A stretch of 59,324 nt of DNA, the filler included. It is 5 parts of 5 records of this genome, joined end to end, with 100 filler letters (N's around TTAATTAATTAA, not from the genome) between each part and the next. Parts side by side here need not be neighbours in the genome. Positions count along the whole stretch, not along the records: positions 1 to 16,802 come from DRR723986_1871; 4 more parts are not named here. The stretch is one strand, 5' to 3'. The notes beneath the pieces are model-generated. The model saw only the letters and a list, made by a program, of their open reading frames with translations, ran no database searches and was not told the DNA's origin. The position numbers and the translations under genes were made by a program. Shown in pieces: positions 1 to 19,409 of the stretch (the stretch's first letter is position 1; each line of letters begins with the position of its first letter).

Positions 1-30
1 TCGGAGGTTCGAATCCTCTCACTCCGACCA
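1..30 (+). tRNA. 3' end of tRNA-Pro (truncated by window start); attL of the element
   Basis: TCGGAGG-TTCGAAT-CCTCT-CACTCCG-A-CCA gives a T-arm, acceptor strand and CCA typical of alphaproteobacterial tRNA-Pro; anticodon not visible. Confidence 0.85.
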
Positions 31-44
31 AATTTCACCACTGC

Positions 45-57
45 AATCAACCACTTA
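45..57 (+). promoter_or_regulatory. IHF-type binding site in attL
   Basis: AATCAACCACTTA fits WATCAANNNNTTR. Confidence 0.6.
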
Positions 58-81
58 CACCCCTCCCCTTGGCACTGAGAG

Positions 82-120
82 TTGTGCAAACTTGTGCATT
101 GTTGCACGAGAGATGCACAA
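82..120. repeat. left arm-type site array (GTGCA, GTGCA, TGCAC, TGCAC)
   Basis: Motifs at 84, 94, 103, 114; the same 0/10/19/30 offsets recur at 16397-16431. Confidence 0.7.
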
Positions 121-136
121 CGGCTAGCCTTGCCGA

Positions 137-1531
137 ATGGAAACAGCAGAAAAACGCCTCCGCACTCGAACAGATGGTATCTGGGAAATCGTTTGGAACG
201 ATCCCAAGTCGGGAAAAGTTCGCAGAAAATCGACGGGCAACCGTGATCGCTATGCCGCTCTACAAGCCTTGGAAACATTTGCTCCTGAAAAGGTGGACGA
301 AAAATCAAAATTTGACGTTGCGTACCGCCTTCGACGCCGCTCAGATGGCATTTTTGAAACAGCGTGGAGCGACCCAACGACGAAGAAGGTCAGACGGAAA
401 ACTACTGGCACCAAAGACGAAACTGACGCCCAGATCAAACACGCTGCCAATATTGTCGCCATTCAAGCAGGGGATGCACCGGATTCGGCTACTGTCGGAT
501 GGGCTTTGGACGAGCATCTGGCCTATGTTACCGAGCATAAGTCTCCGAAAACTGCTGCGACCTTGCCTCCAAAAATCCGAGCACTGAAAGCACGGCTCGG
601 GGCACTGGATTGTGATCAGGTAAATCAAAACCACGCAGACGGCTACGTAGCTTGGCGGACACGTCAAAAACGTTGGGAAGGGGATAAACGCTTCAATGGT
701 GGAATCGGCAATGTATCTCAAAGCACTGCCGCCAGCGAACTCCGAATGTTGCGAGCAGCAATAAATCGGGCATACAAAAATGGTTTCGTTGAGCAGCCGT
801 CAAAATTTTCCATAGAAAAGGGAGAAACCCACCCGCTACACGGAAATTGGCTGGAAGACCACGAGTTGGCCCAAATACTGGAGGCGTGCGAACCGCGCAA
901 CTATGTTGTGAACGGAAAAACATTGGAGCGGAAAACCGACCGTGAACATATTGAAGCATTTATTATGATCGCTGTAGCCACCGGCGCTCGGAAAGAAGCG
1001 GTTTTGTCTTTGACGTGGGATCAAGTGCATATCCCCAAACTCCCGGGCGATTACCTCGAAATCGAACCAAAACGTCGGATTTTTGTGGCTGATGATAATC
1101 GAAAGGTTCTCGACTACCACACGCTCGAGAATATAGAGGGCGCATTCATAGACTTTGGCCCCGGCAGTGGCAACAAACTCCGCCCTCGCATTCCTATCGG
1201 TCAAAATTTTGAGCTGATGAATTACCTGTGTTTTGGTGGGGATCGTTCGCAGCCATACGTCATTTCGCGAAATGGTGAGCCAGTGGAAAGCGTTAAGAAA
1301 GGTCTATCCACCGTTGCCTCAGAAGCGGGTATCAAAAAGAAAGTCACTCACCACACCTTCAAGCGGACGGCGATAACCCGGTTTGTCCGCGCCGGAATTC
1401 CTCTTCGTGAGGTTGCGAAGATGGTCCAAACCACAGAGGACATACTAGAAAAGCACTACAATCATTTTCGCCCTGATTTGGAAAGGATGGTAGGCGCATC
1501 GGGTGCAATAAAACGCCGACGTCCAACGTAA
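137..1531 (+). CDS. tyrosine recombinase/integrase with duplicated N-terminal arm-binding-like domain
   Basis: TGARKEA (catalytic R), HTFKR (HxxR) and KHY (Tyr); adjacent to tRNA 3' end; two N-terminal repeats RLRxRxDGIxExxWxDPxxxKVRRKxTGxxD. Confidence 0.92.
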   Translation: METAEKRLRTRTDGIWEIVWNDPKSGKVRRKSTGNRDRYAALQALETFAPEKVDEKSKFDVAYRLRRRSDGIFETAWSDPTTKKVRRKTTGTKDETDAQIKHAANIVAIQAGDAPDSATVGWALDEHLAYVTEHKSPKTAATLPPKIRALKARLGALDCDQVNQNHADGYVAWRTRQKRWEGDKRFNGGIGNVSQSTAASELRMLRAAINRAYKNGFVEQPSKFSIEKGETHPLHGNWLEDHELAQILEACEPRNYVVNGKTLERKTDREHIEAFIMIAVATGARKEAVLSLTWDQVHIPKLPGDYLEIEPKRRIFVADDNRKVLDYHTLENIEGAFIDFGPGSGNKLRPRIPIGQNFELMNYLCFGGDRSQPYVISRNGEPVESVKKGLSTVASEAGIKKKVTHHTFKRTAITRFVRAGIPLREVAKMVQTTEDILEKHYNHFRPDLERMVGASGAIKRRRPT

Positions 1532-1726
1532 CTGGACAACAATCTTCTGCACTCTCCTCAGTCAAAATTTCTTTGAAAACGGCGACAAAATTACCTGACC
1601 CGTTTCTGCGGTTGCTTTGACTTTTTTCCCGTTTTGTGTTAAATTTCTAGACGTGGGAAAGGCACCGGGGGTGTTGCCCACCGCGCCGGGGGCGTGTTCC
1701 AAAATCCAAAAAATGAAAGAACTCTT

Positions 1727-1960
1727 ATGATAACCGCATCTCAAATTGCGGCTTCTTTGGAGGTTTCGCTAGGGCGAGTATATCGCTCTCTTTCGAGACC
1801 GTTCCCGTTGCCGTTTACGCTTGCGCCAGCCCTCAAAAAGGGAGGGGCGTGCGAACGCCTTTATACCATCGGTGTCGTCCTACCTCGTGTCAAACAAGCA
1901 TTTTCTCCAACGCCTGCGCAAATTAGGAAACTCTTTGAACATGGAGGCTACAATGTCTGA
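1727..1960 (+). CDS. small HTH-like protein, possible excisionase/regulator
   Basis: 77 aa; N-terminal TASQIAASLEVSLGRVYR resembles an HTH; follows int; its stop overlaps the next start. Confidence 0.5.
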   Translation: MITASQIAASLEVSLGRVYRSLSRPFPLPFTLAPALKKGGACERLYTIGVVLPRVKQAFSPTPAQIRKLFEHGGYNV

Positions 1961-2387
1961 CCTTACAGCCATTCAGAACATCATTGCAGGCCTGACATCG
2001 ACACAAAGAACGCGACTGGATGCAATCCAGACTCAAGTAAGGGTCGAACTGGCCCGGAATTTTGGTGACCGTCTGGCTCCGATCATGACGGATGTGCTTG
2101 TTCAGGAAAGCATCACCCATCCTGACGTTCTCGCGGCGCTGGAGGGCATACAGGAAAGCCTACCCCAAACGCCCTCTGATTGGCGCGCGTTTGTGCAGAA
2201 CCTCATACGGAACAACGATCTGGCTCAGCGCAACATCGCTTTCTCCGATGCGGCTAGACAAGCTGAAATCCACGCCGACGAGTTGGAAAAACTGCGTCCG
2301 GATCATCGTTTGACACTTAGCCGGTTCGGAAAGCTTGATGCCCACCTTGAGAAACAGGTCACGGCAAGGTTGGAGGCGAGTGAATGA
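1953..2387 (+). CDS. hypothetical helical protein
   Basis: GGAGG RBS before ATG 1953; overlaps both neighbouring ORFs. Confidence 0.65.
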   Translation: MSDLTAIQNIIAGLTSTQRTRLDAIQTQVRVELARNFGDRLAPIMTDVLVQESITHPDVLAALEGIQESLPQTPSDWRAFVQNLIRNNDLAQRNIAFSDAARQAEIHADELEKLRPDHRLTLSRFGKLDAHLEKQVTARLEASE

Positions 2388-2800
2388 AGCAGTTCACAGA
2401 GATCGAACAGTCTCGTGTGCATCTGGCTGTGTGCAGTGCGCTGGGCGTGGCGGACGAACCGCAAAGCAGGGAGGAGCGCATACGGTATAGTTACGCATAC
2501 TGGGCCGCTCGTGATGTCACCACGTTCCGGGAAGCTGGATTGCTGGCGGCAGCTCTAACTGAGCATGCCCAGCGCACTGATTTCTGTTTTCGGATGTCAG
2601 AATTGTCAGTCGCTGCTGATCACCTTGAAATGGCTCAGTGCGCGGGAGAATTGATGGGAGCCGTCAACATTGGTCGGGGCGTGTGGAGTACAGCACCTAA
2701 GGAAAACGCACCGCGTGTCTCGGTGCCGCCCACGCTCTTCCGTGACTATCTGGAAGAGTGGGCTTGTCATCTCCCATTCGATGAGGTCGCGCCGTCCTGA
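2384..2800 (+). CDS. hypothetical protein
   Basis: GGAGG upstream, ATGA overlap with previous gene, followed by a hairpin. Confidence 0.65.
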   Translation: MKQFTEIEQSRVHLAVCSALGVADEPQSREERIRYSYAYWAARDVTTFREAGLLAAALTEHAQRTDFCFRMSELSVAADHLEMAQCAGELMGAVNIGRGVWSTAPKENAPRVSVPPTLFRDYLEEWACHLPFDEVAPS

Positions 2801-2814
2801 AGTAGGTCAAAGCC

Positions 2815-2839
2815 GATGCCCCAATGCGCATGGGGCATC
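2815..2839. terminator. hairpin closing the small-gene operon
   Basis: GATGCCCCA-N7-TGGGGCATC perfect inverted repeat; no clear U-tract. Confidence 0.45.
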
Positions 2840-2977
2840 AATTCTCGTGTCACTTTGCTTTCTTACTAGACTTGGCCTGCGTAATGGCAGGGCAGTAAAT
2901 GAGGCTTGAATATTGTTTGTCAGAGCCAGCGAAGAAACTCGTCTTAAAGACGAAAAGTGTGATTTTTCAATATCTTA

Positions 2978-3006
2978 TTGACATTTCCCGGATCGTAATT
3001 TAGTGT
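2978..3006 (+). promoter_or_regulatory. sigma70-type promoter for the primase-helicase gene
   Basis: TTGACA-17 bp-TAGTGT. Confidence 0.55.
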
Positions 3007-3177
3007 ATGGCGCACGATCTTTGGATGAGTCTGCCTGACTTCTTCAAGCGGGCTGCATGTTCTGGGTCCGGGGTCTAGGCTAAGTCGCATTGCGGCCATG
3101 TCGCAAAACACACCTAAGCCATTGGCTAAAAATTGTAATCGATGGGGTTCTCCCATCGCTCCAAAAAGGATGAAGAT

Positions 3178-6100
3178 ATGAATGTTTCTGAGACACAAGA
3201 CGCATTGGAAACGGCGTTCCTAGCTGCCGGGCTTCCGGAAGGCAGTTACGAAATAGACGGGGATAACGTTGTCCCGCTGTTCCCAGATGATCCGGACGTG
3301 ATTGTTAAGACGTGCCCGACGCGTGGTGACATCGAAATCTTGGTTGATGATCGAGGCGAGCAGGAAATTGAGTCTGATGGTGCTGAACTGGAGGGACCTG
3401 CGTCAGCAGGTGAATCAACACCTGAATCAGAATACAGTGAGACAGCAGATTCCGGACCAGTTGAAGGCGATTTTTACGGTGAACTAAACAACGCCGCGAT
3501 ATACGGACCAGAGCCGGACAGCTTCGTTGATTTCCTGAACCAGCCTGCCACGTTCCTAACTGGTGAGATGTGGGGTGCTAAAGACCGCCGAAACACTCAG
3601 GATGGTGACTGGAAGGCCGTGACGTTGCCATGGGGCGCATGGATCAATGGTGGTGAAGGGGACAAGAACCGCGCCGCTTGGGGTCTCTCCCGGCACCCGG
3701 TCGGCAAAAACAAAGAAGGCCCATCCATCGTTCTGGGATCGTCCATCGAAGGCGCACGCAAAGCGAACGCAATGGATGAAATGTACGCGCTCGGTCTCGA
3801 CATCGACTCCGGTGCTGCGTTGAACGACGTGGTTGACACCATTCGCGAGAAGAGCCTTCTGGCACTGATCTATACGTCACACTCCCACGGGAAATCCGGC
3901 TTGGAAATCAAGCGGGATGAAGTGATGCGCAAGCTCGGCATCGGTGAAGACCCAAACCTTCCGCAAGTGCAGGAATATCTGCGCATGTACTCCAAGAGCC
4001 GTTATGAAGAATCCTTCATCAATCAGGTGCGTATCGAGGATGGTAAGCGTCAGACCAAAGAAGGTGTGAAGATCATCCTGTCCACGCCGCCGTTGGACAA
4101 ATTCCGGATCATTTTCCCTCTGTCCGCCCCGGTCAAGCTGATCGATCTCGCTCCTACACAGGCTGCGGCCCTAGAAGTGTGGGAAGACAAGATCACAGGC
4201 ATGGCGTGGGAGGCTCTGGGCGTCCATTTCGATACGTCGTGTACTGACCCGAGTCGTTTGTTCTACACCGCCCGTCACGCCAAAGAGGCGGAGTGGGACT
4301 GTATGATCCTACGCGGTGATCCACTGAAATTCGACGACGTGCCTGTGTACAAAAAGCACCAGTACACAAAGCAGCGCGCCAAACTGAACCCGTTCGAGAT
4401 GGTTGGCGCTGATCTGGACGACAACAAAATCCCGACTGCTGAAACCCCGTCTGGCAAGAACCTGAACGACTGGCACCGCCACGCCAAGGACCGGTTCCAG
4501 ATGGCTTCCCTGTTGGAAGATATGGTTCCAGACAAAATCCGCCATGCGGGCGGCGAGACGCAGGGCCATGTCCATACCGAATGCCCGTTCGAGCACGAAC
4601 ACTCGAAAGAGGGCGGCACCGCCACCATGGCAATCGATGCCCTAGACTCTCAGAGCGAATACTGGACGTGGTTTTGCCACCACGATTCCTGTCAGGGACG
4701 TCATAAGCTGGAATTTCTTGAGGAAGCTCTACAGCAGGGCTGGTTCGAAGAAGAAGTGCTGTTCGACGAGGACGGCATGTACATCCTTGATCCGGGCGAA
4801 GAAGAAAAGAAGGTGCAGCCCTATCTGGATAGGGCGGCAGAACTGCCCCGAAACCCATCTGCCAAGGTCGTGGTTCGGCTGATTGCAGAAGCGTTGATGG
4901 ACAGGATAACCGTGCCGGAGGTTGAGGAACTGAAGGCTTCGGTGATGGCATCCACAGGCCTCAAAGCTAGGCCTCTGGACAAGCTGTGGAAACAAGCGGA
5001 GGAGCAGTGCCTCAGGGTGGCAGACAAACAGCGTGAAATAGAAAAGGCAAACATGGAGATGCCGGAGCTTTTGCCGCTGGACGCGGCGACACCCGAGACC
5101 ATCAACGCAGCCGCAGCAAATGTCAAATGGTCGGGAAAAGTCGTTTACAGGGATGGCTGGTTTGGCAAAGTTGAAGGCTTTGGCGCTGATGAAAAGTTCT
5201 ACAAAACCTGCCGTGCTTTTGAGCCAATCCATTGTGCGGATGGTGCATTCGGCAAGTCACGCCGTGGTAATGAAATTAAAATTCGCTACCGGCACCGAAC
5301 GACCCGCATGGGGATCGTGGAATCCACATATTCTGTAGGTGCGACCTATAAGGACTCGGGAACAATATTGGGACGGCTGGCTGAGGAGGGTTTGGACTTC
5401 CACCCTCAAGCCGATTCCGGTGATGTACTAACCTTGTTGCGTTCTGTGCGTGGACGTGACGCCGTGCTGATTGAAAAACCCGGCTGGACCGATGACAAAT
5501 CCGCATGGGTGTCGCCGACCGGTGAAGTGGCTACAGAAGGTGACACCACATACATTCTTGTGGAACGTATGCGCGTCAGCGCTGTGAAGGCCGGTACTCT
5601 GGACCTCTGGACAGAAAACGCCGCCGTTGCTCTGCGAGGAAGGAACCGGAAGCACTTCTTGCCGGGGTTTCTGTCGGGTGGTGTCGGCATTCTTGCGGAT
5701 TATCTGGACACGCAGATGTCGCCCATCGTGGCAAATGAGGGAGATGGAAACCGGGGTAAAACCTCATCACTTCTGGCTGGTGTATCTTGGATCGCTATCA
5801 CGTCCGTGGAAGGCCTGACAGCCTCTTTGAACGCCACAGAGACTGCAATTGAAGGGCTGGCTGTACGAGCCACAGGTGCTGTTCTCGCGTTGGACGAAGA
5901 AGGCGTTATCAACCGTGCTGCTGAGGACATGCAATCTCTTTATTTGATGATGGCGGGTGGCGTAGGTCGCGCACGGGGAAATACAGATGCCAGTGTCCGC
6001 GAATTAAACTCATGGCGGACATGCTTTACCATATCCACTGAGGCAGGATTTGTGTCCCGGATGGAACGAGCACAAGCAGAAAGGCCAGATGTTCAGGTAA

Positions 6101-6939
6101 AAACCGGGGCTGTGTCGCGGATACTCAGTGTGAATTACAATGACTCTGTAGTGTTGGACAAAAGTGATCCCGACGATGCACGAGAACTGGCGGCGTATTC
6201 CGTGCTGGCAGGTGTGAAAGGTAAAGACACGTCTGTGCGGGCTTACGGGTGGGCAGGGGTTGTGTTTGCCGACGCACTAATGGCTTTCGGTGTAGTGGCC
6301 ACCAATGACATGGTGAATGCATATGTTGAGAAGTGGGGCAAGAACCGCCTTGGCGCACAAGACCGTGTTGTCCACACCGTCGCGCTTTTTGCCACAACCG
6401 CCGAAATTGCCAAAGAAGCTGGGTTGATCCCGAAGGATGTGGACACCGACGCGTTGCTGGAAGAACTGCTTGACGAAACGCTGCGCCAGCGAGTGATGCA
6501 TCTGGACACCGACATGCAGTCGATGGAAAAACTCAAGCGTGCCGTTGTGAATGCCGTAAATGCAGGCCAGATCATTCCCACCGGAGGCGAAAAACTCCAC
6601 GGGCGAACAACTTTGGGCTACTACAAGGTCGAGAGTCGTAGGGGTGGCGAGTACGGGATAACCCCTGACACAGACGACGAACTCGCACGGCGTACGTACA
6701 TCTTGCCGGAGGACCGCTTGGGGCAACTCGGCGTCATAGTGGACCCGAAGGTGATGGCGGAACGTATAAATGCGGACGGCGGTCTGGTTGAGCCTGTGGC
6801 GTCGGGACGGTTTGCGGATCGTCTGATGCACGAAACCACCCCTTCCGAGGGGCGTATGGCCAACATACGCATCACTGGTCAGTGGGTGCATGGATTGGAA
6901 GACGGGCCTGCCAGTGAGACGGACGCGCCAAACGGGTGA
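3178..6939 (+). CDS. multidomain replication protein: AEP-like primase + Zn finger + DUF927-like (Cch-type) helicase
   Basis: LDIDSG (DxD), IYTSHSH, KFRIIFPLS and DTSCTDPSRLFY primase-like motifs; CPFEHEH...FCHHDSC Zn finger; Walker A-like GDGNRGKTS and Walker B LALDEEG; GVGRARG...SWRTCFTISTE typical of DUF927 proteins; alternative start 3142. Confidence 0.75.
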   Translation: MNVSETQDALETAFLAAGLPEGSYEIDGDNVVPLFPDDPDVIVKTCPTRGDIEILVDDRGEQEIESDGAELEGPASAGESTPESEYSETADSGPVEGDFYGELNNAAIYGPEPDSFVDFLNQPATFLTGEMWGAKDRRNTQDGDWKAVTLPWGAWINGGEGDKNRAAWGLSRHPVGKNKEGPSIVLGSSIEGARKANAMDEMYALGLDIDSGAALNDVVDTIREKSLLALIYTSHSHGKSGLEIKRDEVMRKLGIGEDPNLPQVQEYLRMYSKSRYEESFINQVRIEDGKRQTKEGVKIILSTPPLDKFRIIFPLSAPVKLIDLAPTQAAALEVWEDKITGMAWEALGVHFDTSCTDPSRLFYTARHAKEAEWDCMILRGDPLKFDDVPVYKKHQYTKQRAKLNPFEMVGADLDDNKIPTAETPSGKNLNDWHRHAKDRFQMASLLEDMVPDKIRHAGGETQGHVHTECPFEHEHSKEGGTATMAIDALDSQSEYWTWFCHHDSCQGRHKLEFLEEALQQGWFEEEVLFDEDGMYILDPGEEEKKVQPYLDRAAELPRNPSAKVVVRLIAEALMDRITVPEVEELKASVMASTGLKARPLDKLWKQAEEQCLRVADKQREIEKANMEMPELLPLDAATPETINAAAANVKWSGKVVYRDGWFGKVEGFGADEKFYKTCRAFEPIHCADGAFGKSRRGNEIKIRYRHRTTRMGIVESTYSVGATYKDSGTILGRLAEEGLDFHPQADSGDVLTLLRSVRGRDAVLIEKPGWTDDKSAWVSPTGEVATEGDTTYILVERMRVSAVKAGTLDLWTENAAVALRGRNRKHFLPGFLSGGVGILADYLDTQMSPIVANEGDGNRGKTSSLLAGVSWIAITSVEGLTASLNATETAIEGLAVRATGAVLALDEEGVINRAAEDMQSLYLMMAGGVGRARGNTDASVRELNSWRTCFTISTEAGFVSRMERAQAERPDVQVKTGAVSRILSVNYNDSVVLDKSDPDDARELAAYSVLAGVKGKDTSVRAYGWAGVVFADALMAFGVVATNDMVNAYVEKWGKNRLGAQDRVVHTVALFATTAEIAKEAGLIPKDVDTDALLEELLDETLRQRVMHLDTDMQSMEKLKRAVVNAVNAGQIIPTGGEKLHGRTTLGYYKVESRRGGEYGITPDTDDELARRTYILPEDRLGQLGVIVDPKVMAERINADGGLVEPVASGRFADRLMHETTPSEGRMANIRITGQWVHGLEDGPASETDAPNG

Positions 6940-6964
6940 TTTCCGGATGTAACGAGAGAGCGAG

Positions 6965-6987
6965 GGCCGCCGTTTAGGCGGCCTTTT
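6965..6987 (+). terminator. Rho-independent terminator
   Basis: GGCCGCC-gttta-GGCGGCC-TTTT. Confidence 0.75.
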
Positions 6988-7016
6988 GCTGTGCAGGCGG
7001 GTCTTCCCCCAAGTGA

Positions 7017-7332
7017 CTCCCAAGCTTGGGAGCGGGATGGGAGCCATTCTGGGAGCCGAATGTCGGGAGAAAGTGACTTTTTTGTAAGGGGTTATCTGAG
7101 CCGTGTCCATGACTCCCATGAGTCCCATAAAAGACAGAGAGACCTCCTGAAAGGTTATCAATTGATGGTCCCCGTGCGGGCCTTCAACAGACGCGCGACA
7201 TATTAGTCCCTTGGCTGCGCGTCCATTTTCCCGGTGGGAGTCTGGGAGCCACAAGGAACAAAGTGATAAGTGCTGGGATTTCAGGGTGTTGATGGAACAT
7301 TTCGCTCCCAAAGCCATTCCCAACCTTGGGAG
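7017..7332. repeat. iteron-like TGGGAG/CTCCCA block, putative replication origin
   Basis: Perfect palindrome CTCCCAAGCTTGGGAG at 7017, near-copy at 7317; TGGGAG at 7038, 7050, 7235, 7243; CTCCCA at 7113, 7305. Confidence 0.6.
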
Positions 7333-7774
7333 TAGACCAAGCCTCTGGGCAGTTCAGCGGACTTGTACACTTCACTTCACATCGCCCCAGCAAAACTTGT
7401 ACAGCCCGCTCCTGCCATGCACAAAGTCAGCCCTGAAATCCCGATTAATTGATTGAAATAGTCAGATATGTCCCTTGCACTAGCCGCGAGGCAATGAGAA
7501 CGCAAGTTCACTTCAAGACTTGCATTACTAATTACATCACCGTTCGCACTCCCTGCTACGCGGGGATGCACCACACCGGAAACACCCATCCCATCACCAT
7601 GGAAACTATCCAACACCGGGTCGGTCGCCGTTTAGAAACTCGTCCACTGCTCGACGCAGTAAACCGGTTGTTTTTAGCAACACTCACTTTTTCTTGTTAC
7701 GAGATTAGGTACGATAGAATTTCGTTCATGGCGGCGAAATACGGAATGTAAATTTATTGTTCTGGACCCGAAAC

Positions 7775-8635
7775 CTAATCGGATTCAGGTGAACGCAGCG
7801 CACTAAGTGTGTGACGCACAGCCCTACTCAAAATCTCATCAACCGAAAAAACCGTGTCCATACCATTGTCGAGGCCTAACCTTCGTATGCCAATGTGAAA
7901 GATTGCTCGGTCGTCGTTGTCTCCAAATAATTCATGGGTCTCCGAAATCTCCGATGCATCGGAAATGGTCACGCGGAAGTCACTATCTTTCACGTCTTCT
8001 AAAAACTTAGACATGAATTCACATGCGTATTCGAGATGGCTCCCAGCTTGAAGGTGCTCTTGGAAAAGCTTCTCCGCTTTGGGATTGTCCAAAATCAGGC
8101 GACAGCGAGTCACCACGCAATACGGAACCTTTTCGCCATGATCCACAAACAGCCATTCTACGATTGAGCTTCTTTGAATTGTGCCCCAATCGACAGACCA
8201 GTCGGTGTGGAAGTCCAACCTGTCGATACGTGACTGCTGGGGATTAGATATCCGCTGCAATGACCTGTCGAGAAGCTCAAAAGCTTGATCTTTGTCCTTT
8301 CTGAAATCGACGTAGAGTTTGTCCCGAAGGAACAATGGTATGTTGCAGTCTCCCACGATGCACGGAATGAGTATTGCTCGTCGTTCGTCTAACTCACGCA
8401 TCAGACCGGCGTTCAGTTCCCGCTTGCACCATGAAGAATTTATCGAGTGCTCTGACAGAACAACAAGGATCGCGTCAGACTCACCAATTGCTTCTTGAAT
8501 CTTGTCCAGCAACGAGTCCCCCGCGTTGAGTTCCCACTGGTCGATCCATACGTTGTGCCGGGCGTAGACCAAATTTCGGGCGAGTGTCGTTACAAAGCCC
8601 TTGTCGTTATGATTATAGCTAATGAAAATAGGCAC
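7775..8635 (-). CDS. TIR-domain protein with uncharacterised C-terminal domain
   Basis: IFISYNHND, VWIDQWELNAGDSL, AIGESDAILVVLS and WCKRE (catalytic Glu) are canonical bacterial TIR motifs. Confidence 0.88.
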   Translation of the reverse strand: MPIFISYNHNDKGFVTTLARNLVYARHNVWIDQWELNAGDSLLDKIQEAIGESDAILVVLSEHSINSSWCKRELNAGLMRELDERRAILIPCIVGDCNIPLFLRDKLYVDFRKDKDQAFELLDRSLQRISNPQQSRIDRLDFHTDWSVDWGTIQRSSIVEWLFVDHGEKVPYCVVTRCRLILDNPKAEKLFQEHLQAGSHLEYACEFMSKFLEDVKDSDFRVTISDASEISETHELFGDNDDRAIFHIGIRRLGLDNGMDTVFSVDEILSRAVRHTLSALRSPESD

Positions 8636-8817
8636 CGTGGGTGATCCTTCCTCAAGTTGTATGGCCGACAGTCAATGCACGATCAATTGCACAACTCTGA
8701 GTTGGTCGAAATGCCTTTCCAAAAAATTCGGTCATAAACCTCGCACATCCTTGTCTTGAAACGTCGCGGACATAGTCAATGCGGTTTTGGAGAGGTTTAA
8801 CCGATTTGAGTTTTGAC

Positions 8818-8933
8818 GTGTCCAAACTGAGTATACTCTGACAGGACGCCTGAAGTTTACCCCATAGTGTCCGATTAGACTTGCCGAATCACTTATCGGA
8901 CAGGTAGTATTAATGAGACAGTCAAATCGGACA
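8818..8933. promoter_or_regulatory. putative res site of the serine resolvase
   Basis: Palindrome GAGTATACTC (8829-8838); inverted pair TGTCCGAT (8868)/ATCGGACA (8895); third ATCGGACA (8926), directly upstream of the resolvase. Confidence 0.65.
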
Positions 8934-8946
8934 GAAGGGACAAATC

Positions 8947-9513
8947 ATGGGCGAATTGATCGGATACGCAAGAGTCAGCAGTAAAGGTCAGGACCTGACC
9001 ATACAGACCGACGCCCTGACGGGCGCAGGTGTTCATTCAGACCATCTTTACTCAGAGAAGATCAGTGGAACCAAACGAATGGGACGCGCCGCACTGGACG
9101 ACATGCTGTCACGTGGAATCCGCAAGGGCGATACCGTCGTCGTGACGCGGCTGGACCGGTTGGCACGTTCGACGCGCGATCTTCACAACATCGCTCACAT
9201 TCTGAGTGAGAAAGGTGTGGGTCTCCGGGTGCTGGAACAGAACATCGACACTACCACGCCAGAGGGTCGCATGTTCTTTACAATGCTCTCCGCAGTCGCT
9301 GAGTTTGAGACTGAGATACGCAAAGCCCGCCAACGTGAAGGTATCGATGCTGCTTTGGCCAAGGGGGCTGACAGCCCATTCAAAGGGCGTCCGGCCACCA
9401 TTGATGTTGAAAAGGTTGCTGACCTGCGTCAGCAGGGCAAGACGCCAACGGCAATCGCCAAAGAGCTTGGGATCGCCCGCTCATCAGTCTACCGATACCT
9501 CCAATCGAAATAA
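8947..9513 (+). CDS. serine resolvase/invertase
   Basis: IGYARVSS catalytic motif, VVTRLDRLARS, C-terminal GRP + HTH (IAKELGIARSSVYRY). Confidence 0.95.
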   Translation: MGELIGYARVSSKGQDLTIQTDALTGAGVHSDHLYSEKISGTKRMGRAALDDMLSRGIRKGDTVVVTRLDRLARSTRDLHNIAHILSEKGVGLRVLEQNIDTTTPEGRMFFTMLSAVAEFETEIRKARQREGIDAALAKGADSPFKGRPATIDVEKVADLRQQGKTPTAIAKELGIARSSVYRYLQSK

Positions 9514-9945
9514 TGCAGGACACTGAAAAAGGTGATTTCCTCTGTGTTCAGGGTGGTTGAAGTTGGCGTTTTTGCTTAAGCCCCTGACAAGGCAAAATAA
9601 TTCTGGGACCCGTAGAGGGAGGCGTCGACTCTCAGCCTAATTTTGACGGGCGCTGAGGCCCGCTACAAGTGCATGTTTTCCCTTTCATTTCTGTGGGTAG
9701 GAAACATTTCTGGATTATGAGACACCCCCATGTTTCAGAAAATACCGGCCTATAAAAAATTTCAAAATTTCTGAAAAACACTTAACATTCTTGCATTCCT
9801 GACAGGCCCCATGGCCTCGGTGACGTCTGCAGTTTGCCATTCCTGTCGTGAAATTATTTCTGAGACTATATTGGATGGGCTGGAAGCCACACCCCCAGAA
9901 GTTGTAGGTTGAGCAAAATCAAAACATTCGGAACGAGGCAGCGCA

Positions 9946-11979
9946 TTGGAACACATCGGAAATCTGGAACGGCGGCTTTGGACATCAGCGGATGTTCTGC
10001 GATCCACTTCAAACTTTGCGAGCAACGAATACTTCATGCCGGTGATGGGGTTGATCTTTCTCCGTCACGCATGTTCCCGCTTTCTGAAAGTTCGGGATGA
10101 GATCATTCCTACGCTACCAAGTCGCGGCGGCAAAACGCGGGACCTGACCAAGGCGGACTTTTCCAGCAGAAGCTCGATATTCCTGCGGCCAGAGGCACAA
10201 TTCGATTACCTCGTGAGTCTGCCCGAGGGTCAGAGCGCATCTGCCGCTGTCATCCATGCGATGGAGACCATCGAAGAAGACTATGAAACGCTCGCTGGCC
10301 TCCTCCCTAAGCAGGAATACGAAGAACTTGATGACGACGCCTTGCGGCAAGTTCTGCGCATCTTCAATGACCCCGCGCTGCAAAAAGCTGATGGCGATGT
10401 CTTTGGGCGCATCTATGAATATTTCCTGACCCAGTTCGCCGATCAGAAAGCACACGACAATGGCGAATTCTTCACACCGATCAGTATCGTCGAAACCATC
10501 GTAAACGTTATTGAACCGACACGCGGCAAGGTCATCGACCCAGCCTGTGGTTCCGGCGGCATGTTCGTGCAGTCGGCGCATTTCGTCGAGGCGATGAAGG
10601 CCAACCCAAACGAACAGCTCACCTTTTACGGGATGGAAAAGAACCCGACCACACTTCGTCTTGCCAAGATGAACCTCGCAGTTCACGGGTTGGAAGGAGA
10701 TATCCAGAAAGCGATCAGCTACTACGAGGACCCACACAAAGACCAAGGGCCGTTTGACTATGTTATGGCCAATCCACCCTTCAATGTGGATGAGATTGAC
10801 GCCGAAAAGATGAAAGATGACAAACGTCTGTCCTTTGGCCTTCCCGGCGTAAACAAAGGCGGCAAGGTCTCCAACGGCAACTACGTTTGGATGTCGTTCT
10901 TCCATTCTTATCTGTCCGAACGTGGACGAGCAGGCATTGTCATGTCGTCGCAGGCGTCCTCGGCTGGAGGGCAAGAGGCCAAAGTGCGCGAGGCAATGGT
11001 CAAGACAGGCGATATCGACATCATGTTCGCGATTAGGGGTAACTTTTTCTACACACGTACCGTGCCCTGCGAAATCTGGTTTATGGACAAGGGTAAACCA
11101 GAGCACCTGCGCGACAAGGTGCTGATGCTAGATGCACGCCATGTCTTCCGGAAGGTGACACGCAAGATTTTCGATTTCTCGCCCGAACAGATGCATAACT
11201 TGTCTGCCATCGTCTGGCTTTACCGGGGGCAAGAGGACCGGTTCGCAAGTCTGGTGCAAGACTATTTAACCACTGCACGGGCAGAGGCTCAGGGTTCGGA
11301 GTTCGCCGATCTGTTCAGCGCGTTTGAAACTGCATTGAACTACTTCACCAAGCACACGGACACGGCGGAGTTGAAGGCGGGTGTCGACAAGCTGAAAACC
11401 GATGCGGGTGATTACATATCAGCAACTAAGGCATTGGCAGAACCAAACGCCGATATCGCATCTCTTGTAGAGTCCCGCTCAACAATGGAGCAGGTTGCGG
11501 ATCAGGCCAAGGTGCTTGTCAGGGAAATCGACCATCTAGCGAAGCTGACTCAGAAGGCGCAGGAAGCAACAATTGCAAAAGGTGAGAAGGCCGCTGTGGG
11601 GAAGAGGCTGCTAGCTGCGATAGCGGAGGCGCGGGTGCCGTTGACAGGTGATCCAGAACAGCATCTGACGGTGACCGGCAGCTTGAAGCGCTCTCGGTAT
11701 TTCGAGGGGCAAGCAGAATGGTTGCTGTCGCGTTTTCCTGAAGGCAAGCTGCGCGATGTTGAAGGTCTGGTAAAACTGGTGGATCAGGAAGAACTGGCCG
11801 CCAATGACTTCAGCTTAACACCGGGGCGCTATGTGGGAGTGGCACCGGAAGAGGATGACGAAGATTTTGATTTCGATGAGACGATCAAGGAAATCCATCT
11901 AGAGATTGAAACCTTGAATGCCGAGGCCGCAGAGCTGGCAGAGACCATCGCCAAGAACTTTGAAGAGCTGATCGTATGA
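9946..11979 (+). CDS. hsdM: type I R-M methyltransferase subunit
   Basis: GEFFTP, DPACGSGG (SAM binding), NPPF catalytic motif, C-terminal SLTPGRYVG; TTG start with GAGG RBS. Confidence 0.95.
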   Translation: MEHIGNLERRLWTSADVLRSTSNFASNEYFMPVMGLIFLRHACSRFLKVRDEIIPTLPSRGGKTRDLTKADFSSRSSIFLRPEAQFDYLVSLPEGQSASAAVIHAMETIEEDYETLAGLLPKQEYEELDDDALRQVLRIFNDPALQKADGDVFGRIYEYFLTQFADQKAHDNGEFFTPISIVETIVNVIEPTRGKVIDPACGSGGMFVQSAHFVEAMKANPNEQLTFYGMEKNPTTLRLAKMNLAVHGLEGDIQKAISYYEDPHKDQGPFDYVMANPPFNVDEIDAEKMKDDKRLSFGLPGVNKGGKVSNGNYVWMSFFHSYLSERGRAGIVMSSQASSAGGQEAKVREAMVKTGDIDIMFAIRGNFFYTRTVPCEIWFMDKGKPEHLRDKVLMLDARHVFRKVTRKIFDFSPEQMHNLSAIVWLYRGQEDRFASLVQDYLTTARAEAQGSEFADLFSAFETALNYFTKHTDTAELKAGVDKLKTDAGDYISATKALAEPNADIASLVESRSTMEQVADQAKVLVREIDHLAKLTQKAQEATIAKGEKAAVGKRLLAAIAEARVPLTGDPEQHLTVTGSLKRSRYFEGQAEWLLSRFPEGKLRDVEGLVKLVDQEELAANDFSLTPGRYVGVAPEEDDEDFDFDETIKEIHLEIETLNAEAAELAETIAKNFEELIV

Positions 11980-13106
11980 GCTGGGCTGAAGCTTCGATAG
12001 AGGAACTCTGCGAAAGAGTCGCCAGTGGTGGTACACCAAAGCGCTCGCAGAACGAGTATTGGGAAAATGGGACCATTCCTTGGTTGAAGACTGGAGAATT
12101 GAACGACGGCTATGTCTATAGCGCTGAGGAATTGATCTCAGTGGCAGGAATTAAAAACTCTTCAGCAAAACTATTTCCGAGAAATACCGTGCTGATGGCA
12201 ATGTACGGAGACGGAAAAACCATTACAACATTGTCAATTCTCGGTACCGCGTCTGCAACCAATCAAGCCTGTGCCGCAATGATCGCCGATCCTACGGTCT
12301 GCGACTACCGTTTCTTATTCTATAGCTTGAAAAGACATAGACACAAACTGCTTAAACTTGTGGTTGCCGGTGCTCAGAGGAACCTTAGCCTTGGCATAAT
12401 CAAGAAGTTCTCGATTCCAGTTCCCGACCTCCCCACCCAAAAGCGCATCGCAACGATCCTCTCAGCCTATGACGTCTTGATCGAAAACAACCGGCGGCGG
12501 GTTGCGTTGTTGGAACAAACGGCGCGGCTGCTCTATCGAGAATGGTTCGTCCATTTCCGCTTTCCCGGCCATGAGACCGCAAACTTCTTTGATGGGCTGC
12601 CGGAGGGGTGGGAGACAAGGACCATCGGTGATCACTGCCCGTTTGTTTACGGAAAGGCGCTCAGGGCAGACACTCGGACGGCAGGTATGATTGATGTATA
12701 CGGTTCCAGTGGGATTGTTGGCAGCCACAATAAGGAACTCGTGAAAGCAAACGCAATTGTCGTTGGTCGAAAAGGTAATGTTGGAAGCGTTTTCTGGGCA
12801 CAAAGGGACTTTTGGCCAATTGATACCGTCTATTACATCGTGCCGGAGAAAAGCGACTATTTCACATATTTTGCTTTGCAAAACGTCACCTTCATTAACA
12901 CGGACGTTGCGGTTCCCGGACTGAACCGCGACTTCGCGCACAGCCGTGAACTCTCTATTCCGGATGATGACCTACTTTCGGAATTCAATCTGATTGCCGC
13001 GGGGTTCATGAAGCAAATCAGACTTCTATCAAGCGCTAATGATAACCTCACCAAAGCCCGCGACCTTCTTCTCCCGCGCCTGATGGATGGACGCCTTCCC
13101 GTATAA
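11976..13106 (+). CDS. hsdS: type I R-M specificity subunit
   Basis: Two TRDs separated by conserved PDLPTQKRIATILSAYD...LYREWFV; ends ARDLLLPRLM; ATGA overlap with hsdM. Confidence 0.95.
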   Translation: MSWAEASIEELCERVASGGTPKRSQNEYWENGTIPWLKTGELNDGYVYSAEELISVAGIKNSSAKLFPRNTVLMAMYGDGKTITTLSILGTASATNQACAAMIADPTVCDYRFLFYSLKRHRHKLLKLVVAGAQRNLSLGIIKKFSIPVPDLPTQKRIATILSAYDVLIENNRRRVALLEQTARLLYREWFVHFRFPGHETANFFDGLPEGWETRTIGDHCPFVYGKALRADTRTAGMIDVYGSSGIVGSHNKELVKANAIVVGRKGNVGSVFWAQRDFWPIDTVYYIVPEKSDYFTYFALQNVTFINTDVAVPGLNRDFAHSRELSIPDDDLLSEFNLIAAGFMKQIRLLSSANDNLTKARDLLLPRLMDGRLPV

Positions 13107-13121
13107 GTGTAGTATTTTTGT

Positions 13122-16100
13122 ATGAACGATTTCACCGAAGACCAATTGGTCCAGACGACCATGGCCGACTACCTGCACGATGTGCATGGCTGGCGCTCTG
13201 TCATGGCGTGGAACAAAGAGACATTCGGCCCTGAGGGCACGTTTGGGCGTCGCTCTGACAAAGACGTGGTACTGACCCGCTATCTGTCTGAAGCGCTGGT
13301 CAAACTGAACCCCGGTCTGCCTGATGTGGCCTATAAACAGGCCTTGCGAGAGATTACCGAAATCTTCGGCTCTCAATCTCTGATCCGCATCAATCAGGAC
13401 AAATATGCCTTGGTCCGCGACGGGGTGAAGGTGAAGTTTCGCCAAAGCGGCGAGCAGAAGGTCGAACGCCTGCGTGTGTTCGATTACGACGCGCCCGAAA
13501 ACAACGACTTCCTATGTGTCCGGGAAATGTGGATACGCGGTTATGCCCACCGACGGCGTGCCGATATCATCGGTTTCGTCAACGGCCTTCCGCTGATGTT
13601 CTGCGAACTGAAGCGCCCCGACAAAGACCTGCGCCGTGCCTACAACGAGAACCTGAGCGATTATAAAGACGCCATCCCCCATCTGTTCCACTTCAACGCA
13701 TTTGTCATTTTGGGCAATGGTGAGAAGGCAAAGATGGGGTCGATCAGCGCGGATTATGAACACTTTGCAGATTGGCTGAAGTTGGGTGAGGGCGACCGGC
13801 GGGACGAGATGCTGCCGATGGAGGCGCTTCTCAAGATTGTGTGTGACAAACGGCGGTTTTTGGACCTGTTCGAGAACTTTATCCTTTTTGCAGACAGGGC
13901 TAGCGGCCCTGCAAAGATTGTAGCCAAGAACCACCAGTACCTTGGTGTGAACCGCGCCGTTGAGGCGGTGGAGAAGCGTGATAGCTTGAACGGGAAGCTG
14001 GGGGTGTTCTGGCACACGCAGGGGTCGGGAAAGTCATTTTCGATGGTCCTGTTCACTCAGAAGGTTCATCGCAAGCTTGGTGGCGACTTCACCTTCCTTG
14101 TGTTGACCGACCGCACCGATCTGGACAATCAGATTTACAAAACCTTCTCTTCTGTTGGGCTTGCCAATAACGATAAAGACCCGTGCCGTGCCGGATCGGC
14201 CAAAGGCTTGCGTGATCTTCTTGGCCAGCAGAAGAAGGTCGTCTTTACGATGATCCAGAAGTTTACCGACGCAGAGGCCGAAGGTGGGGTTTATTCAGAT
14301 CGGGACAATGTGATCGTCATGACTGACGAGGCACACCGCACCCAGTACGGCACCTTGGCGCTGAACATGCGCAAAGGACTACCCAACGCCAACTTCATCG
14401 GTTTCACAGGCACGCCTCTGTTCGCCAATGACGAAATCACAAAGCAGGTATTCGGCGAGTATCTGTCAACATATGACTTTCAGGATGCAATCGAAGATGG
14501 AGCGACTCTGCCGCTGTTCTACGATGCCCGGGGAGATAAGCTTCAGGTTTCGGGCAATGGGCTGAATGAAAAGCTTGCAGAGGCCATCGCAGATGCTGAG
14601 ATCGACGACCCCGATGTTGCGGCAAAACTCTCAGACGATCTGAAACGCGAATACCATGTGGTGACCGCTGAGCCTCGTCTTCGGCATGTGGCCAATGATT
14701 TCGCTTGGCACATCTCGACCAATTGGGAGAGCGGTAAGGCCATGTTCGTGGCCATTGATAAGATCACTGCCGTCCGCATGCATAACTACGTTCAGGAGGC
14801 TTGGCAGGACCGCATCGATGCGCTCGAGCAGGAGCTGAAAACGGTCACGGATGATCAGGAAAGGGTCATTCGGGGACAACAGCTTGAGTGGATGCGCGAG
14901 ACCCAAATGGCGGTCGTCGTCAGTGACGAGCAAAACGAGATTAAGAAGTTCAAAGATTGGGGTTTGGACATCATCCCACACCGAAAGCGGATGAAGGACG
15001 GATTTACAGTCAAGGAGATGGTAGGAGGTCGCGAAGTCGAAAAACGACTGGATGCCGATACTGCGTTCAAGCGCGAAGATCATCCGTTCCGTATCGTTTT
15101 CGTCTGCGCGATGTGGCTGACTGGATTTGACGTCCCTTCGCTCTCCACGCTCTATCTCGACAAGCCTTTACAGGCCCATACGCTTATGCAGGCCATCGCT
15201 CGTGCTAACCGCGTGAAAGAGGGCAAGAACAATGGTCTGGTTATCGACTATTGCGGCATCCTAAAAAATTTACGCAAGGCGCTTGCCACATTTGCGGGTC
15301 ATACCGGAGGAGGCCCTGTTGGTGGCGGTGAAGAGGGCGGAGGCACAGATGTCGACCCCCTCAACCCCGAGGACAAGCTGCTTGGAGAGCTTGTTGAGGC
15401 AATCGGGTTGGTGCGAGAGCGCCTTAGGGACGAGGGGTATGACCTCGACCGGATGAAGTCGGCGACGGGGTTCGACAAGCTGAAAGCCCTCAAGGACGCC
15501 AAAGAGCTTATCAATACTAACGACGAGACCCGGAAAGGTTTTGAGATCGCCGCGCGCGCAGTATTCCGAAAGTACAAGGCGTGCCTGACCTTTGCTCGGG
15601 TCGAAACCTATAAGCCTGAATACCAAGCCATCAACTACATCTACAGCTCTCTGCAAGAAGACAAATCTGCAGCGGACACAACGGCGATCATTCAAAAGCT
15701 GAACGAGATTGTTGCCGAAGCCATCGATATACAGCCCGATAGCGAAGGCGACCGCATTTTCGATATATCAAAGGTCAACTTTGAACTTTTGCGTATGGAA
15801 TTTGCCAAGAGTGAACGAAAAGCCAGTGACGTGCAGGACTTACGCAGTGTCATTCAGAAACGCCTTGCCAAAATGCTCGCCGACAACCCCACTCTGAATG
15901 ACTTTCAGGAACGCTTCGGAGAAATCGTCTCCGAGTACAACAAAGAAAAAGACAAGAATACCATTGAAGCCACCTTCGAAGCCCTGATGCGCCTCACAGC
16001 GGAAATGGAAGCTGAGGCGCAGGCCCATGTCGCGCTTGGTCTTACAGCAGATCAGAAACCTGTGTTCGACTTGTTGGTGCGTGATGACCTGACAAAGGAG

Positions 16101-16355
16101 GAAATTCGGCAAATCAAGTCTGCATCCGTTGAGCTTCTCAAGGCTATCCAGCGCAAGATTGAAGAGGTGCAGGATGTTTTCCAAAAGCAGGGCACGAGAG
16201 ATGGGCTTAAGCAGGAGATCTATGACCTGCTCTATGATGAACGAACTGGTCTACCAGCTTCAAAGTACGACGATGATGCCTTGGATTTGAAAACGGACGC
16301 ACTCTTCCAGTTCTTCGAAAACAGATACTCATCTTCAGCAGCTCACACAGCTTAA
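13122..16355 (+). CDS. hsdR: type I R-M restriction subunit
   Basis: [19 protein letters not shown] nuclease motif, HTQGSGKS Walker [28 protein letters not shown]. Confidence 0.95.
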
Positions 16356-16395
16356 CGTGATGCAGCTCAGGCTTGCTTGTTCTTGATTTTGAGGG

Positions 16396-16431
16396 CGTGC
16401 AACATCGTGCAGGATTGCACGAAAATTACAC
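16396..16431. repeat. right arm-type site array
   Basis: GTGCA 16397, GTGCA 16407, TGCAC 16416, TACAC 16427; same spacing as the left array. Confidence 0.7.
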
Positions 16432-16504
16432 TGTTTGCCAATATGTTGCAGATATGCTTGTGCAATATGATTCGAATCATCCCAAATATTATGGATGGTA
16501 AATT

Positions 16505-16555
16505 TCTTTGGGAGGCAGGGGCCGCGAGTTCGAATCTCTCCACTCCGACCAAATT
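16505..16555 (+). pseudogene. degenerate 3' half of tRNA-Pro(TGG)-like sequence; attR
   Basis: TTTGGGA anticodon-loop-like sequence then GCGAG-TTCGAAT-CTCTC-CACTCCGACCA; no 5' half; mismatched T-stem. Confidence 0.75.
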
Positions 16556-16556
16556 A

Positions 16557-16569
16557 AATCAAGTACTTA
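16557..16569 (+). promoter_or_regulatory. IHF-type site just outside attR
   Basis: AATCAAGTACTTA fits WATCAANNNNTTR. Confidence 0.55.
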
Positions 16570-16773
16570 CGTGGAATATCAAAATCGCTGATGCGGCTAC
16601 GCATTGGGGAAATCTTTGGCCATTCCCAAGCCCAATCCAGCCCCTAGCACTGCCGCCTTGAAGCCCGATAAAGGGGGCTAATTTGGTGGAGATTGAGCCA
16701 CATTTGGCACAGGAAAATCCTGACAGATTGATCAGAACGATCAAGGCAATAAGTTACTATATCTGGGGGTATA

Positions 16774-16802
16774 TGGTGGGTCGTGAGAGGCTCGAACTCC
16801 CG
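16774..16802 (-). tRNA. 3' end of a tRNA (probably tRNA-Val), truncated at contig end
   Basis: Reverse complement CGGGAG-TTCGAGC-CTCTC-ACGACCC-A-CCA; identity inferred from recall, anticodon not visible. Confidence 0.7.
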
Positions 16803-16902
16803 NNNNNNNNNNNNNNNNNNNNNNNNNNNNNNNNNNNNNNNNNNNNTTAATTAATTAANNNNNNNNNNNNNNNNNNNNNNNNNNNNNNNNNNNNNNNNNN
16901 NN
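16803..16902. other. artificial contig spacer
   Basis: N44-TTAATTAATTAA-N44, stop codons in all six frames. Confidence 0.98.
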
Positions 16903-16906
16903 AAAC

Positions 16907-16926
16907 GGCTCGGAGAGCCGAGCGAC
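16907..16926 (-). repeat. REP-like palindromic element
   Basis: Minus strand GTCG followed by hairpin CTCGGCTCTCCGAG; lies at contig edge. Confidence 0.35.
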
Positions 16927-17046
16927 AATCGCGTGTGCCCCCAGATTGAAACTCTGGACGCGCTCGCGAGTCGGATTCAATTCGTCACGGACAGGGCTTG
17001 GTCGGCGACAAGCACCGACAGGGTTTGCCAGCTTCGCTGAGCAAAC

Positions 17047-17084
17047 GAAAAAGGCATGGTCAGCGGTTTGCTCACCATGCCTTT
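17047..17084 (-). terminator. Rho-independent terminator after PDZ gene
   Basis: AAAGGCATGGT...ACCATGCCTTT stem with T-run on the minus strand. Confidence 0.7.
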
Positions 17085-17139
17085 CATTTCGTTGTCGCTC
17101 AGCCGGAGTTATCGGAGATGCCCGCCGGCTTCGACAGAC

Positions 17140-18294: not shown

Positions 18295-18619
18295 AAACTA
18301 CTCCGAAACAGATATTTGAAAATGTGTATCAACTACTAAAAGGCCGCGACCAGCGTCCTATTCTTACTCTGGATGCATTTGCAAGGATTGTTGCCGAGCA
18401 GCGTGGGCTGTTTCACCAATTTGCAGCAAGAAACCAATTTCGTTTTGCTGTCAAAGCTCAGGACTGCCTAAGCCAACACATTACGGCTCCGAACGGAACA
18501 CTCGGCAAAGAACCCGGCGAAGCACTCAACGAAGAGCGCCTGCACCAGGCAGCCCCCCCCTGCATCGCCAACAAGCAGTACCGCGGAGCAGTGTCGCGTG
18601 AGATTGGCCGCAAGAAGAA

Positions 18620-19375: not shown

Positions 19376-19409
19376 AAGGAACTTTCCCGCTCTTCAAACA
19401 GCCGAGCGA

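Follow-up and report, generated by a model that had tools for sequence, protein, structure and literature searches.

Organization of the island

The window, that is, the whole stretch of DNA that was analyzed, has a length of 59,324 nucleotides including filler. [quoted passage not shown] The features of this region are as follows:

7..34, plus strand: attL, direct repeat (GTTCGAATCC...CCGACCA), presumably the 3' end of a tRNA gene truncated at the start of the window
137..1531, plus strand: tyrosine integrase (Phage_integrase, E 4.9e-10)
1821-2387 and 2384-2800, plus strand: two overlapping ORFs of 188 and 138 aa, between the integrase and DUF927 genes
3142..6939, plus strand: 1265-aa DUF927-containing protein (DUF927, E 2.1e-20)
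7775..8635, minus strand: TIR-CTD gene, 286 aa, GTG start, stop codon included (ORF and full-length homologues)
7778..8254, minus strand: family-specific CTD, residues 128-286, with conserved R136, D145, G254, D256 and G258 (model with pLDDT 94.8 and pTM 0.88; conservation)
8273..8629, minus strand: TIR domain, residues 3-121 (Pfam TIR_2, HMM E 2.7e-31; structural and sequence matches to solved TIR domains)
8417..8419, minus strand: codon (gaa) of Glu73, the predicted catalytic Glu of WxxxE (WCKRE), aligned to the Glu of AbTIR and PdTIR
8645..8653, minus strand: Shine-Dalgarno-like GAGGAAGGA, 5' of the GTG start (read from the sequence)
8947..9513, plus strand: serine recombinase (resolvase/invertase), divergent from the TIR-CTD gene (Resolvase, E 3.7e-40)
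9946..16355, plus strand: complete type I restriction-modification (RM) operon hsdM-hsdS-hsdR, the cargo neighbor (N6_Mtase, Methylase_S, HSDR_N/SWI2_SNF2)
16528..16555, plus strand: attR, direct repeat 86% identical to attL, the right end of the 16.5-kb island

The repeat that delimits the island is 28 nt long. From tRNA anatomy we take it to be the 3' end of a tRNA gene and, on this reading, the window opens inside a tRNA gene into which the island has integrated. No Rfam family was found at positions 1-20000, and ARAGORN detected no tRNA, because the start of the window truncates the tRNA gene on the left. The island has a GC content of 50-55%, versus 61-65% further right, and to the right of attR lie ordinary chromosomal genes (a PDZ protein, an ECF sigma factor, aldose epimerase, pcm, surE, and riboflavin and capsule genes).

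Between the integrase gene and the TIR-CTD gene, the two overlapping ORFs have neither a Pfam match nor a homologue in 80 related loci. The DUF927 match in the large protein that follows covers residues 736-954 only, leaving about 700 N-terminal residues without a match; this protein is probably the primase/helicase-type replication protein of the island. The 836 bp from the end of the DUF927 gene to the end of the TIR-CTD gene (6939-7775) contain only short ORFs (71-100 aa) that match no family, and one terminator-like hairpin at 6969-6982. On the other side of the TIR-CTD gene, the serine recombinase has a copy that is 79% identical and lies 2 kb from the TIR-CTD homologue in locus L017, and in locus L002 a relative of the recombinase adjoins the homologue. 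The TIR-CTD gene and the serine recombinase may move together as a small module.

The initial annotation described the TIR-CTD gene as cargo that lies beside a type I RM operon and is oriented against the core genes. Both points hold: the hsdMSR operon is contained within the att-flanked island, and the TIR-CTD gene is the sole large minus-strand gene of the island, the integrase, DUF927, resolvase and hsdMSR genes all being on the plus strand. A Pfam scan of the large ORFs of the island identified no SIR2, Macro, CD-NTase, Argonaute or STAND domain, which agrees with the view that the element carries no such gene.

The open reading frame of the TIR-CTD gene is intact over 286 codons, and all peptides that the initial annotation quoted from it (WCKRE, FHTDWSVDW, EWLFVDHG, YCVVTRC and IGIRRLGLDNGMD) were found in it. 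Its GTG start codon (8635-8633) is separated by 9-10 nt from the Shine-Dalgarno-like sequence, and homologues share the N-terminus MPIFISY with the protein of the window. A TTG-initiated ORF of 57 codons (8652-8825, minus strand) stops 17 nt before this start on the same strand; as no related small ORF is found beside the homologues of the TIR-CTD gene, it is probably spurious.

The TIR domain

Residues 3-121 match TIR_2 (PF13676) with a score of 109 bits (cut-off 28), and the Pfam models TIR and ThsB_TIR (PF08937, 26.9 versus 21.2 bits) are likewise above their own cut-offs. The closest solved TIR sequences are those of AbTIR/PdTIR-type NADases (PDB 7uwg, 8g83 and 3h16), with E values of 4e-09 to 2e-08. 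The Glu of the motif W69-C-K-R-E73 is aligned to that of W...EL in two TIR proteins of solved structure, AbTIR and PdTIR. AbTIR has been deposited as an NAD(+) hydrolase, and the aligned Glu is presumably its catalytic residue. In an alignment of 69 family members from all phyla, E73 and W69 are each kept in 68, the remaining one being a gap, and G39 and S41 are each present in 66. The equivalent Glu in SpbK, a TIR protein discussed below, is described as E192 (PMC11984713).

The full-length AlphaFold2 model has moderate pLDDT values of 51-88 in the TIR domain and of 94-97 in the CTD, and a Foldseek search with this model matched solved TIR folds (4w8h_A, TMt 0.73, rmsd 3.5; MyD88 7beq, TMt 0.68). 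Thus, the claim that this is an intact TIR domain with its catalytic Glu stands, and computation supports a catalytically intact domain that is predicted to be NADase-competent. Several ThsB models of PADLOC also match the protein, the best being ThsB1 (E 4e-9). Since the protein passes the ThsB_TIR cut-off and is matched by ThsB1, its sequence alone would not separate a TIR that depletes NAD+ from one that produces a signal.

The C-terminal domain

For the analysis of the CTD we used an alignment of 56 rows, made up of the window and 55 of the 68 loci with a full-length CTD; 13 rows had been left out beforehand because they were truncated or represented other TIR proteins. AlphaFold2 run on this alignment gave a confident model in which four antiparallel strands are followed by two helices, four strands and a final helix. 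These eight strands and three helices bear out the beta-strand character that had been predicted for this region.

Several lines of evidence show that the CTD matches no known family or fold. Firstly, residues ~128-286 are not covered in Pfam, NCBIfam or PADLOC, apart from a weak match to PDC-S63, and when 56 diverse CTDs were searched against Pfam and PHROGs at E <= 0.1 no family matched more than one of them. Secondly, a PDB sequence profile search with the CTD alignment returned designed proteins only (E >= 0.026). Thirdly, a Foldseek comparison of the CTD model with PDB and BFVD, a check already proposed in the initial annotation, gave nothing at E <= 0.001, and the fold matches score lower than chance alone would yield with models of this kind. 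In the ESM Atlas, the best score for residues 130-286 was 0.78, for an unnamed cluster and under the lead threshold. The CTD thus turned out to be a component of a known system in none of the library or fold searches, and computation supports the conclusion that it is assignable to no known family or fold.

PDC-S63 itself was considered as a possible identity of the CTD. The CTD of the window matches it at E 0.0083-0.016, but only one of the 56 CTDs does so at E <= 0.1, which is chance level, and this candidate was rejected.

The two domains differ in their rate of divergence. In a set of 45 closer sequences, pairs share on average 64.5% identity in the TIR domain and 36.6% in the CTD, which is the less similar domain in all 990 pairs. 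Conserved islands at residues 131-150, 161-172 and 251-270 surround a hypervariable stretch (181-250), made up of helices and strands, in which column conservation is 0.25-0.43 versus 0.84 in 251-260, and most of the CTD surface is hypervariable. This faster divergence is as expected of a recognition module. Within the conserved islands, R136, D145 and G254 are invariant in the 69 sequences from all phyla, and G258 (68/69) and D256 (65/69) are nearly so. These five residues could form a catalytic or ligand site and not a protein-recognition surface. The CTD cores are acidic (pI < 7 in 56/56; net charge of -11 for the CTD of the window), and they contain no TM-like segment (median maximal hydropathy 0.98).

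It is also conceivable that the CTD serves constitutively for oligomerization or as a scaffold, as the coiled coil does in AbTIR, and that the protein is activated by, for example, a metabolite or a change in host state that acts at the polar cluster. We consider this improbable, since the rapid divergence of residues 181-250 relative to 251-260 fits an arms-race surface better, and the below-chance fold matches likewise speak against it. A homodimer prediction for the CTD gave a score of 0.00; in this prediction the fold of the partner was uncertain and the alignment was not used, so that the score speaks neither for nor against self-association.

Architecture and distribution of the family

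A profile search with the CTD among 1.84 billion representatives identified 384 proteins at E <= 0.001, 266 of them at E <= 1e-10. The 150 of these 384 matches that were listed all have a size of 95-336 aa, and in them the CTD begins near residue 128 (~128-290) or is represented by shorter pieces. Eight of the short CTD proteins were inspected; they retain the end of the TIR domain or the linker and can therefore be considered 5'-truncated calls. No longer fusions of the CTD were present among 264 candidates of 502-2000 aa, which is weak evidence. Hence, among the matches listed, the CTD appears to be known only behind this TIR domain.

Of 1641 candidates from a word-indexed protein search, 232 reached E <= 0.001. 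Almost all of the 120 that were listed are 275-315 aa long; they align with the query at 43-79% identity over 92-100% of its length, and their names go no further than "TIR domain protein" or "hypothetical". Together, these searches provide computational support for a conserved two-domain family.

When one genome per species was searched, 153 stretches matched the pattern and 106 of them encode a relative, of which 80 loci were kept. According to the record titles, these belong to the Alpha-, Beta-, Gamma- and Zetaproteobacteria, to the Desulfobacterota, Myxococcota, Planctomycetota, Nitrospirota, Balneolaceae, Verrucomicrobiota and Acidobacteriota, to the Actinomycetota, Chloroflexota, Gemmatimonadota and Bacteroidota, and to others, so that the family is spread over at least 13 phyla; the carriers are mostly free-living bacteria from marine, soil and sediment environments. 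Despite this spread the family is rare: among 201 genomes sampled from one carrier's taxonomic family, the CTD profile was found in a single genome, that of the carrier. Collections of phages and plasmids gave TIR-only matches, none of their records covering >=80% of the query. We found no paper describing the TIR-CTD family, although the supplementary tables of the preprints on PADLOC embedding and on the Serratia defense islands may list it.

Genomic neighborhoods of the family

The 1370 ORFs of >=70 aa in the 80 loci were clustered. The TIR-CTD family itself forms a cluster present in 78 loci, and the next-largest cluster, of RM methylases, is present in 7. Loci L027 and L062, in which crude ORF calling gave no plus-strand ORF of the family, were left out of the later neighbor counts. 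Among ORFs of >=35 aa within 1.5 kb, no cluster was common to more than 5 of 79 loci. In the 78 related loci there is no conserved partner gene, which fits the description of the gene as stand-alone.

Most of the 144 nearest neighbors are not recognizable defense genes, and no family accounts for more than 6 of them. In raw counts, the commonest PADLOC match among these 144 was MTase_I (type I methyltransferase, 6), and the Pfam matches were N6_Mtase (5) and Methylase_S, ResIII, HsdM_N and Phage_integrase (3 each). In several loci, the TIR-CTD gene is embedded in or adjoins a type I RM operon. In two Chloroflexota loci (L076 and L079) it lies between an HsdR-like gene and a gene for an HsdM-S fusion, with gaps of 12 and 27 nt and of 15 and -42 nt, respectively, and in L080 it is flanked by hsdR and hsdM. 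In L052 it starts 4 nt after hsdS, with hsdR 4.7 kb downstream, and in L073 it follows hsdM at 41 nt. Thus, computation supports a mobile and RM-associated setting that includes true embedding in type I RM operons of distant phyla. As described by the PADLOC group, embedding in RM systems is the criterion by which they nominate candidate defense genes (bioRxiv 10.1101/2024.01.29.577857).

These data bear on the question of whether the protein serves in defense at all. It might instead be a TIR effector that acts on other cells, either directed against a host or interbacterial, as in the TcpB/BtpA type, or a selfish gene that stabilizes the island. Among the best PDB sequence matches are indeed bacterial TIR proteins that have been investigated for a role in virulence (PdTIR and TcpB), and the gene is always accessory and located on mobile DNA. 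However, the free-living lifestyle of most carriers and their distribution over many phyla, the lack of a conserved secretion-system gene nearby, and the embedding in type I RM operons, a pattern that according to the same preprint is used to predict defense genes (bioRxiv 10.1101/2024.01.29.577857), make this explanation very improbable.

Some loci have features of their own. In L012, L057 and L058 a two-gene module (clusters c10 and c11) lies beside the TIR-CTD gene. There are two SLOG matches (LD_cluster2, E 9e-78) among the nearest neighbors, and one of the genes of this module is probably their source. In other systems, SLOG domains serve to bind signals derived from nucleotides, and a functional link between the SLOG module and the TIR-CTD protein is conceivable. 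In L026 and L039, a second TIR gene (256-262 aa) is located in tandem, directly upstream of the family member. Its product aligns with the query over the TIR domain only (to ~131-140), the C-terminal part being different, and the pair is reminiscent of the paired ThsB1/ThsB2 proteins.

The neighborhoods also bear on the nature of the output. Instead of depleting NAD+, the TIR domain might, like ThsB, generate a messenger of the cyclic ADPR type, which would act on an effector whose gene lies at another place in the genome or that also serves another system. The above-cut-off match to PF08937, the matches to several PADLOC ThsB models and the probable presence of a SLOG gene near the TIR-CTD gene in the three loci mentioned fit this explanation, as does the report that Thoeris TIR proteins are themselves the phage sensors (bioRxiv 10.1101/2024.07.29.605636). 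On the other hand, no effector-like gene is conserved beside the family, its largest shared neighbor cluster being the RM methylases, and no SIR2 or Macro effector gene is found among the island ORFs scanned. Furthermore, SIR2_2 is present in only two of five carrier genomes, far from the TIR-CTD gene, and STALD was found in none of the five, in a search in which the control genomes also gave none and which thus had no positive control. We therefore regard a messenger-producing role as unlikely.

Comparison with known TIR systems

Two systems that have been described are close in concept to the TIR-CTD protein. The first is SpbK (YddK), encoded by ICEBs1 of Bacillus subtilis. In the published description, it is a single-gene TIR NADase of 267 aa that causes abortive infection; its TIR domain, with the catalytic Glu E192, depletes NAD+ without the need for a partner gene, and its non-TIR domain binds the phage portal protein YonE, which is thought to drive oligomerization of the TIR domain (PMC11984713). 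On this description, the TIR-CTD protein resembles SpbK in being a small two-domain TIR protein that is encoded by one gene on an integrative or mobile element, without a conserved partner. However, the order of the domains is TIR-then-CTD here, whereas SpbK is described as having its sensor at residues 1-94 and its TIR domain at 116-267 (PMC11984713). Moreover, the sensor of SpbK comprises ~95 aa and the CTD ~160 aa, a comparison based on the published description, and the host phyla differ.

The second is SDIC1A, from Serratia defense islands. [quoted passage not shown] The likeness to the TIR-CTD protein, an N-terminal TIR domain followed by an unassigned C-terminal domain, is one of architecture. 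According to that report, SDIC1A is a protein of 323 aa with a C-terminal domain of ~220 aa, compared to 286 aa and ~160 aa here, and it has a partner, SDIC1B (E2-like), that tempers its toxicity, whereas the TIR-CTD family has no conserved adjacent ORF of >=35 aa in 79 loci. SDIC1A is reported to be enriched in Salmonella and Escherichia, neither of which is among the 80 TIR-CTD loci. Thus, as far as these descriptions go, the TIR-CTD family differs from SpbK in domain order, from both systems in the size of the second domain, and from SDIC1 in having no partner gene.

The example of SDIC1A raises the possibility that the CTD is the effector or co-effector and that the TIR domain mainly oligomerizes or regulates. 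SDIC1A has the same domain order, and deleting either of its domains reportedly abolishes defense (bioRxiv 10.1101/2024.01.28.577318); the polar cluster of the CTD (R136, D145, G254 and D256) could likewise be a catalytic or ligand site. Yet the strict conservation of the catalytic Glu would not be expected of a purely structural TIR domain. The CTD has no TM-like segment and matched no nuclease, protease or pore family in the sequence and fold searches, and the hypervariability of most of its surface points in the same direction. An effector role of the CTD seems to us rather improbable.

Other known TIR proteins share the TIR domain only. To our knowledge, ThsB invariably functions together with a ThsA effector encoded next to it. 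The TIR-CTD protein is like ThsB in its TIR motifs, in its above-cut-off ThsB_TIR match and, if the CTD acts as a sensor, in that ThsB itself is described as recognizing phage (bioRxiv 10.1101/2024.07.29.605636); it is unlike Thoeris in that ThsA (SIR2-SLOG or Macro-TM) is absent from the island ORFs and is not conserved in the 78 loci. With the full-length model, Foldseek gave its best matches to SPARTA TIR-APAZ proteins (8spo_I, E 3.7e-08), in which an N-terminal TIR domain is likewise followed by a non-catalytic domain. However, these matches are carried by the TIR domain. No SPARTA, APAZ or Argonaute chain is among the matches listed for the CTD-only model, and the CTD has about half the size of APAZ. 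Similarly, the PADLOC model Aga_TIR-PNTD1-PNTD2 matches residues 3-130 (E 9.1e-12), and the TIR-PNTD alignment is limited to 3-130/143. Unlike in SPARTA, there is no short pAgo gene in the island or adjacent to the gene, and no neighbor is conserved across loci.

All active-site motifs align with those of AbTIR and PdTIR, but these proteins have no counterpart of the CTD, their TIR domain presumably being C-terminal, behind a coiled-coil region. Finally, the best PADLOC match is PDC-S66 (E 3.3e-18). It covers the TIR domain only, at positions 151-238 of the 282 of the profile, so that the TIR domain of PDC-S66 is C-terminal, and there is no full-length match. PDC-S66 and PDC-S63 are described as single-gene candidates embedded in RM or BREX systems (bioRxiv 10.1101/2024.01.29.577857).

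Proposed function

We propose that the TIR-CTD protein would act as a self-contained anti-phage defense system, carried as cargo of a tRNA-associated island, in which a single protein combines a TIR NADase with a CTD that senses or regulates and brings about abortive infection; we estimate the probability of this reading at about one half. The N-terminal TIR domain would be the enzymatic effector and, as we infer, would consume NAD+ via Glu73 rather than produce a signal. The CTD would serve as a regulatory or sensor module, keeping the TIR domain inactive at rest, and would recognize a phage-derived trigger during infection. Because the CTD is acidic, this trigger would more likely be a protein than a nucleic acid. 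Recognition of the trigger would lead the TIR domains to assemble into an active oligomer, and the infected cell would then lose its NAD+, so that the phage would fail to propagate. The initial annotation had suggested a CTD that may sense phage and activate the TIR NADase for abortive infection, possibly as a backup to the RM system, a reasonable reading that the present data support in part.

A further-reaching interpretation, which we put forward tentatively, is that the CTD has an undescribed fold and is a dedicated pattern-recognition module coupled to this TIR domain only. The protein would then be a minimal one-chain immune receptor that occurs in at least 13 phyla, often in type I RM operons, and that combines sensor, transducer and NADase in 286 residues and spreads by horizontal transfer. 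In a bolder version of this interpretation, the R136/D145/G254-x-D256-x-G258 cluster would be a small-molecule pocket, and an infection-derived metabolite would be sensed and not a phage protein.

As for novelty, the initial annotation proposed a candidate new single-gene defense system. The part that concerns the CTD stands, in that this domain matches nothing known. The concept itself has been published, according to the descriptions of SpbK (PMC11984713) and SDIC1A (bioRxiv 10.1101/2024.01.28.577318). It should be noted that neither PADLOC 2.0.0, NCBIfam 20.0 nor Pfam recognizes the TIR-CTD family as a whole. Since the fusion of TIR domains to new kinds of sensor is well established, the finding is not conceptually surprising.

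If the single gene protects, a compact and widespread family would be added to the TIR-based defense systems. If the sensing role holds true, the CTD would be a new sensor domain, whose trigger could be found with escape mutants. As the CTD is small, confidently modeled and always associated with one effector, it would be tractable for studying how a non-TIR module gates the assembly of TIR domains. It would also aid the annotation of the many marine and soil genomes in which this gene is now named "TIR domain protein".
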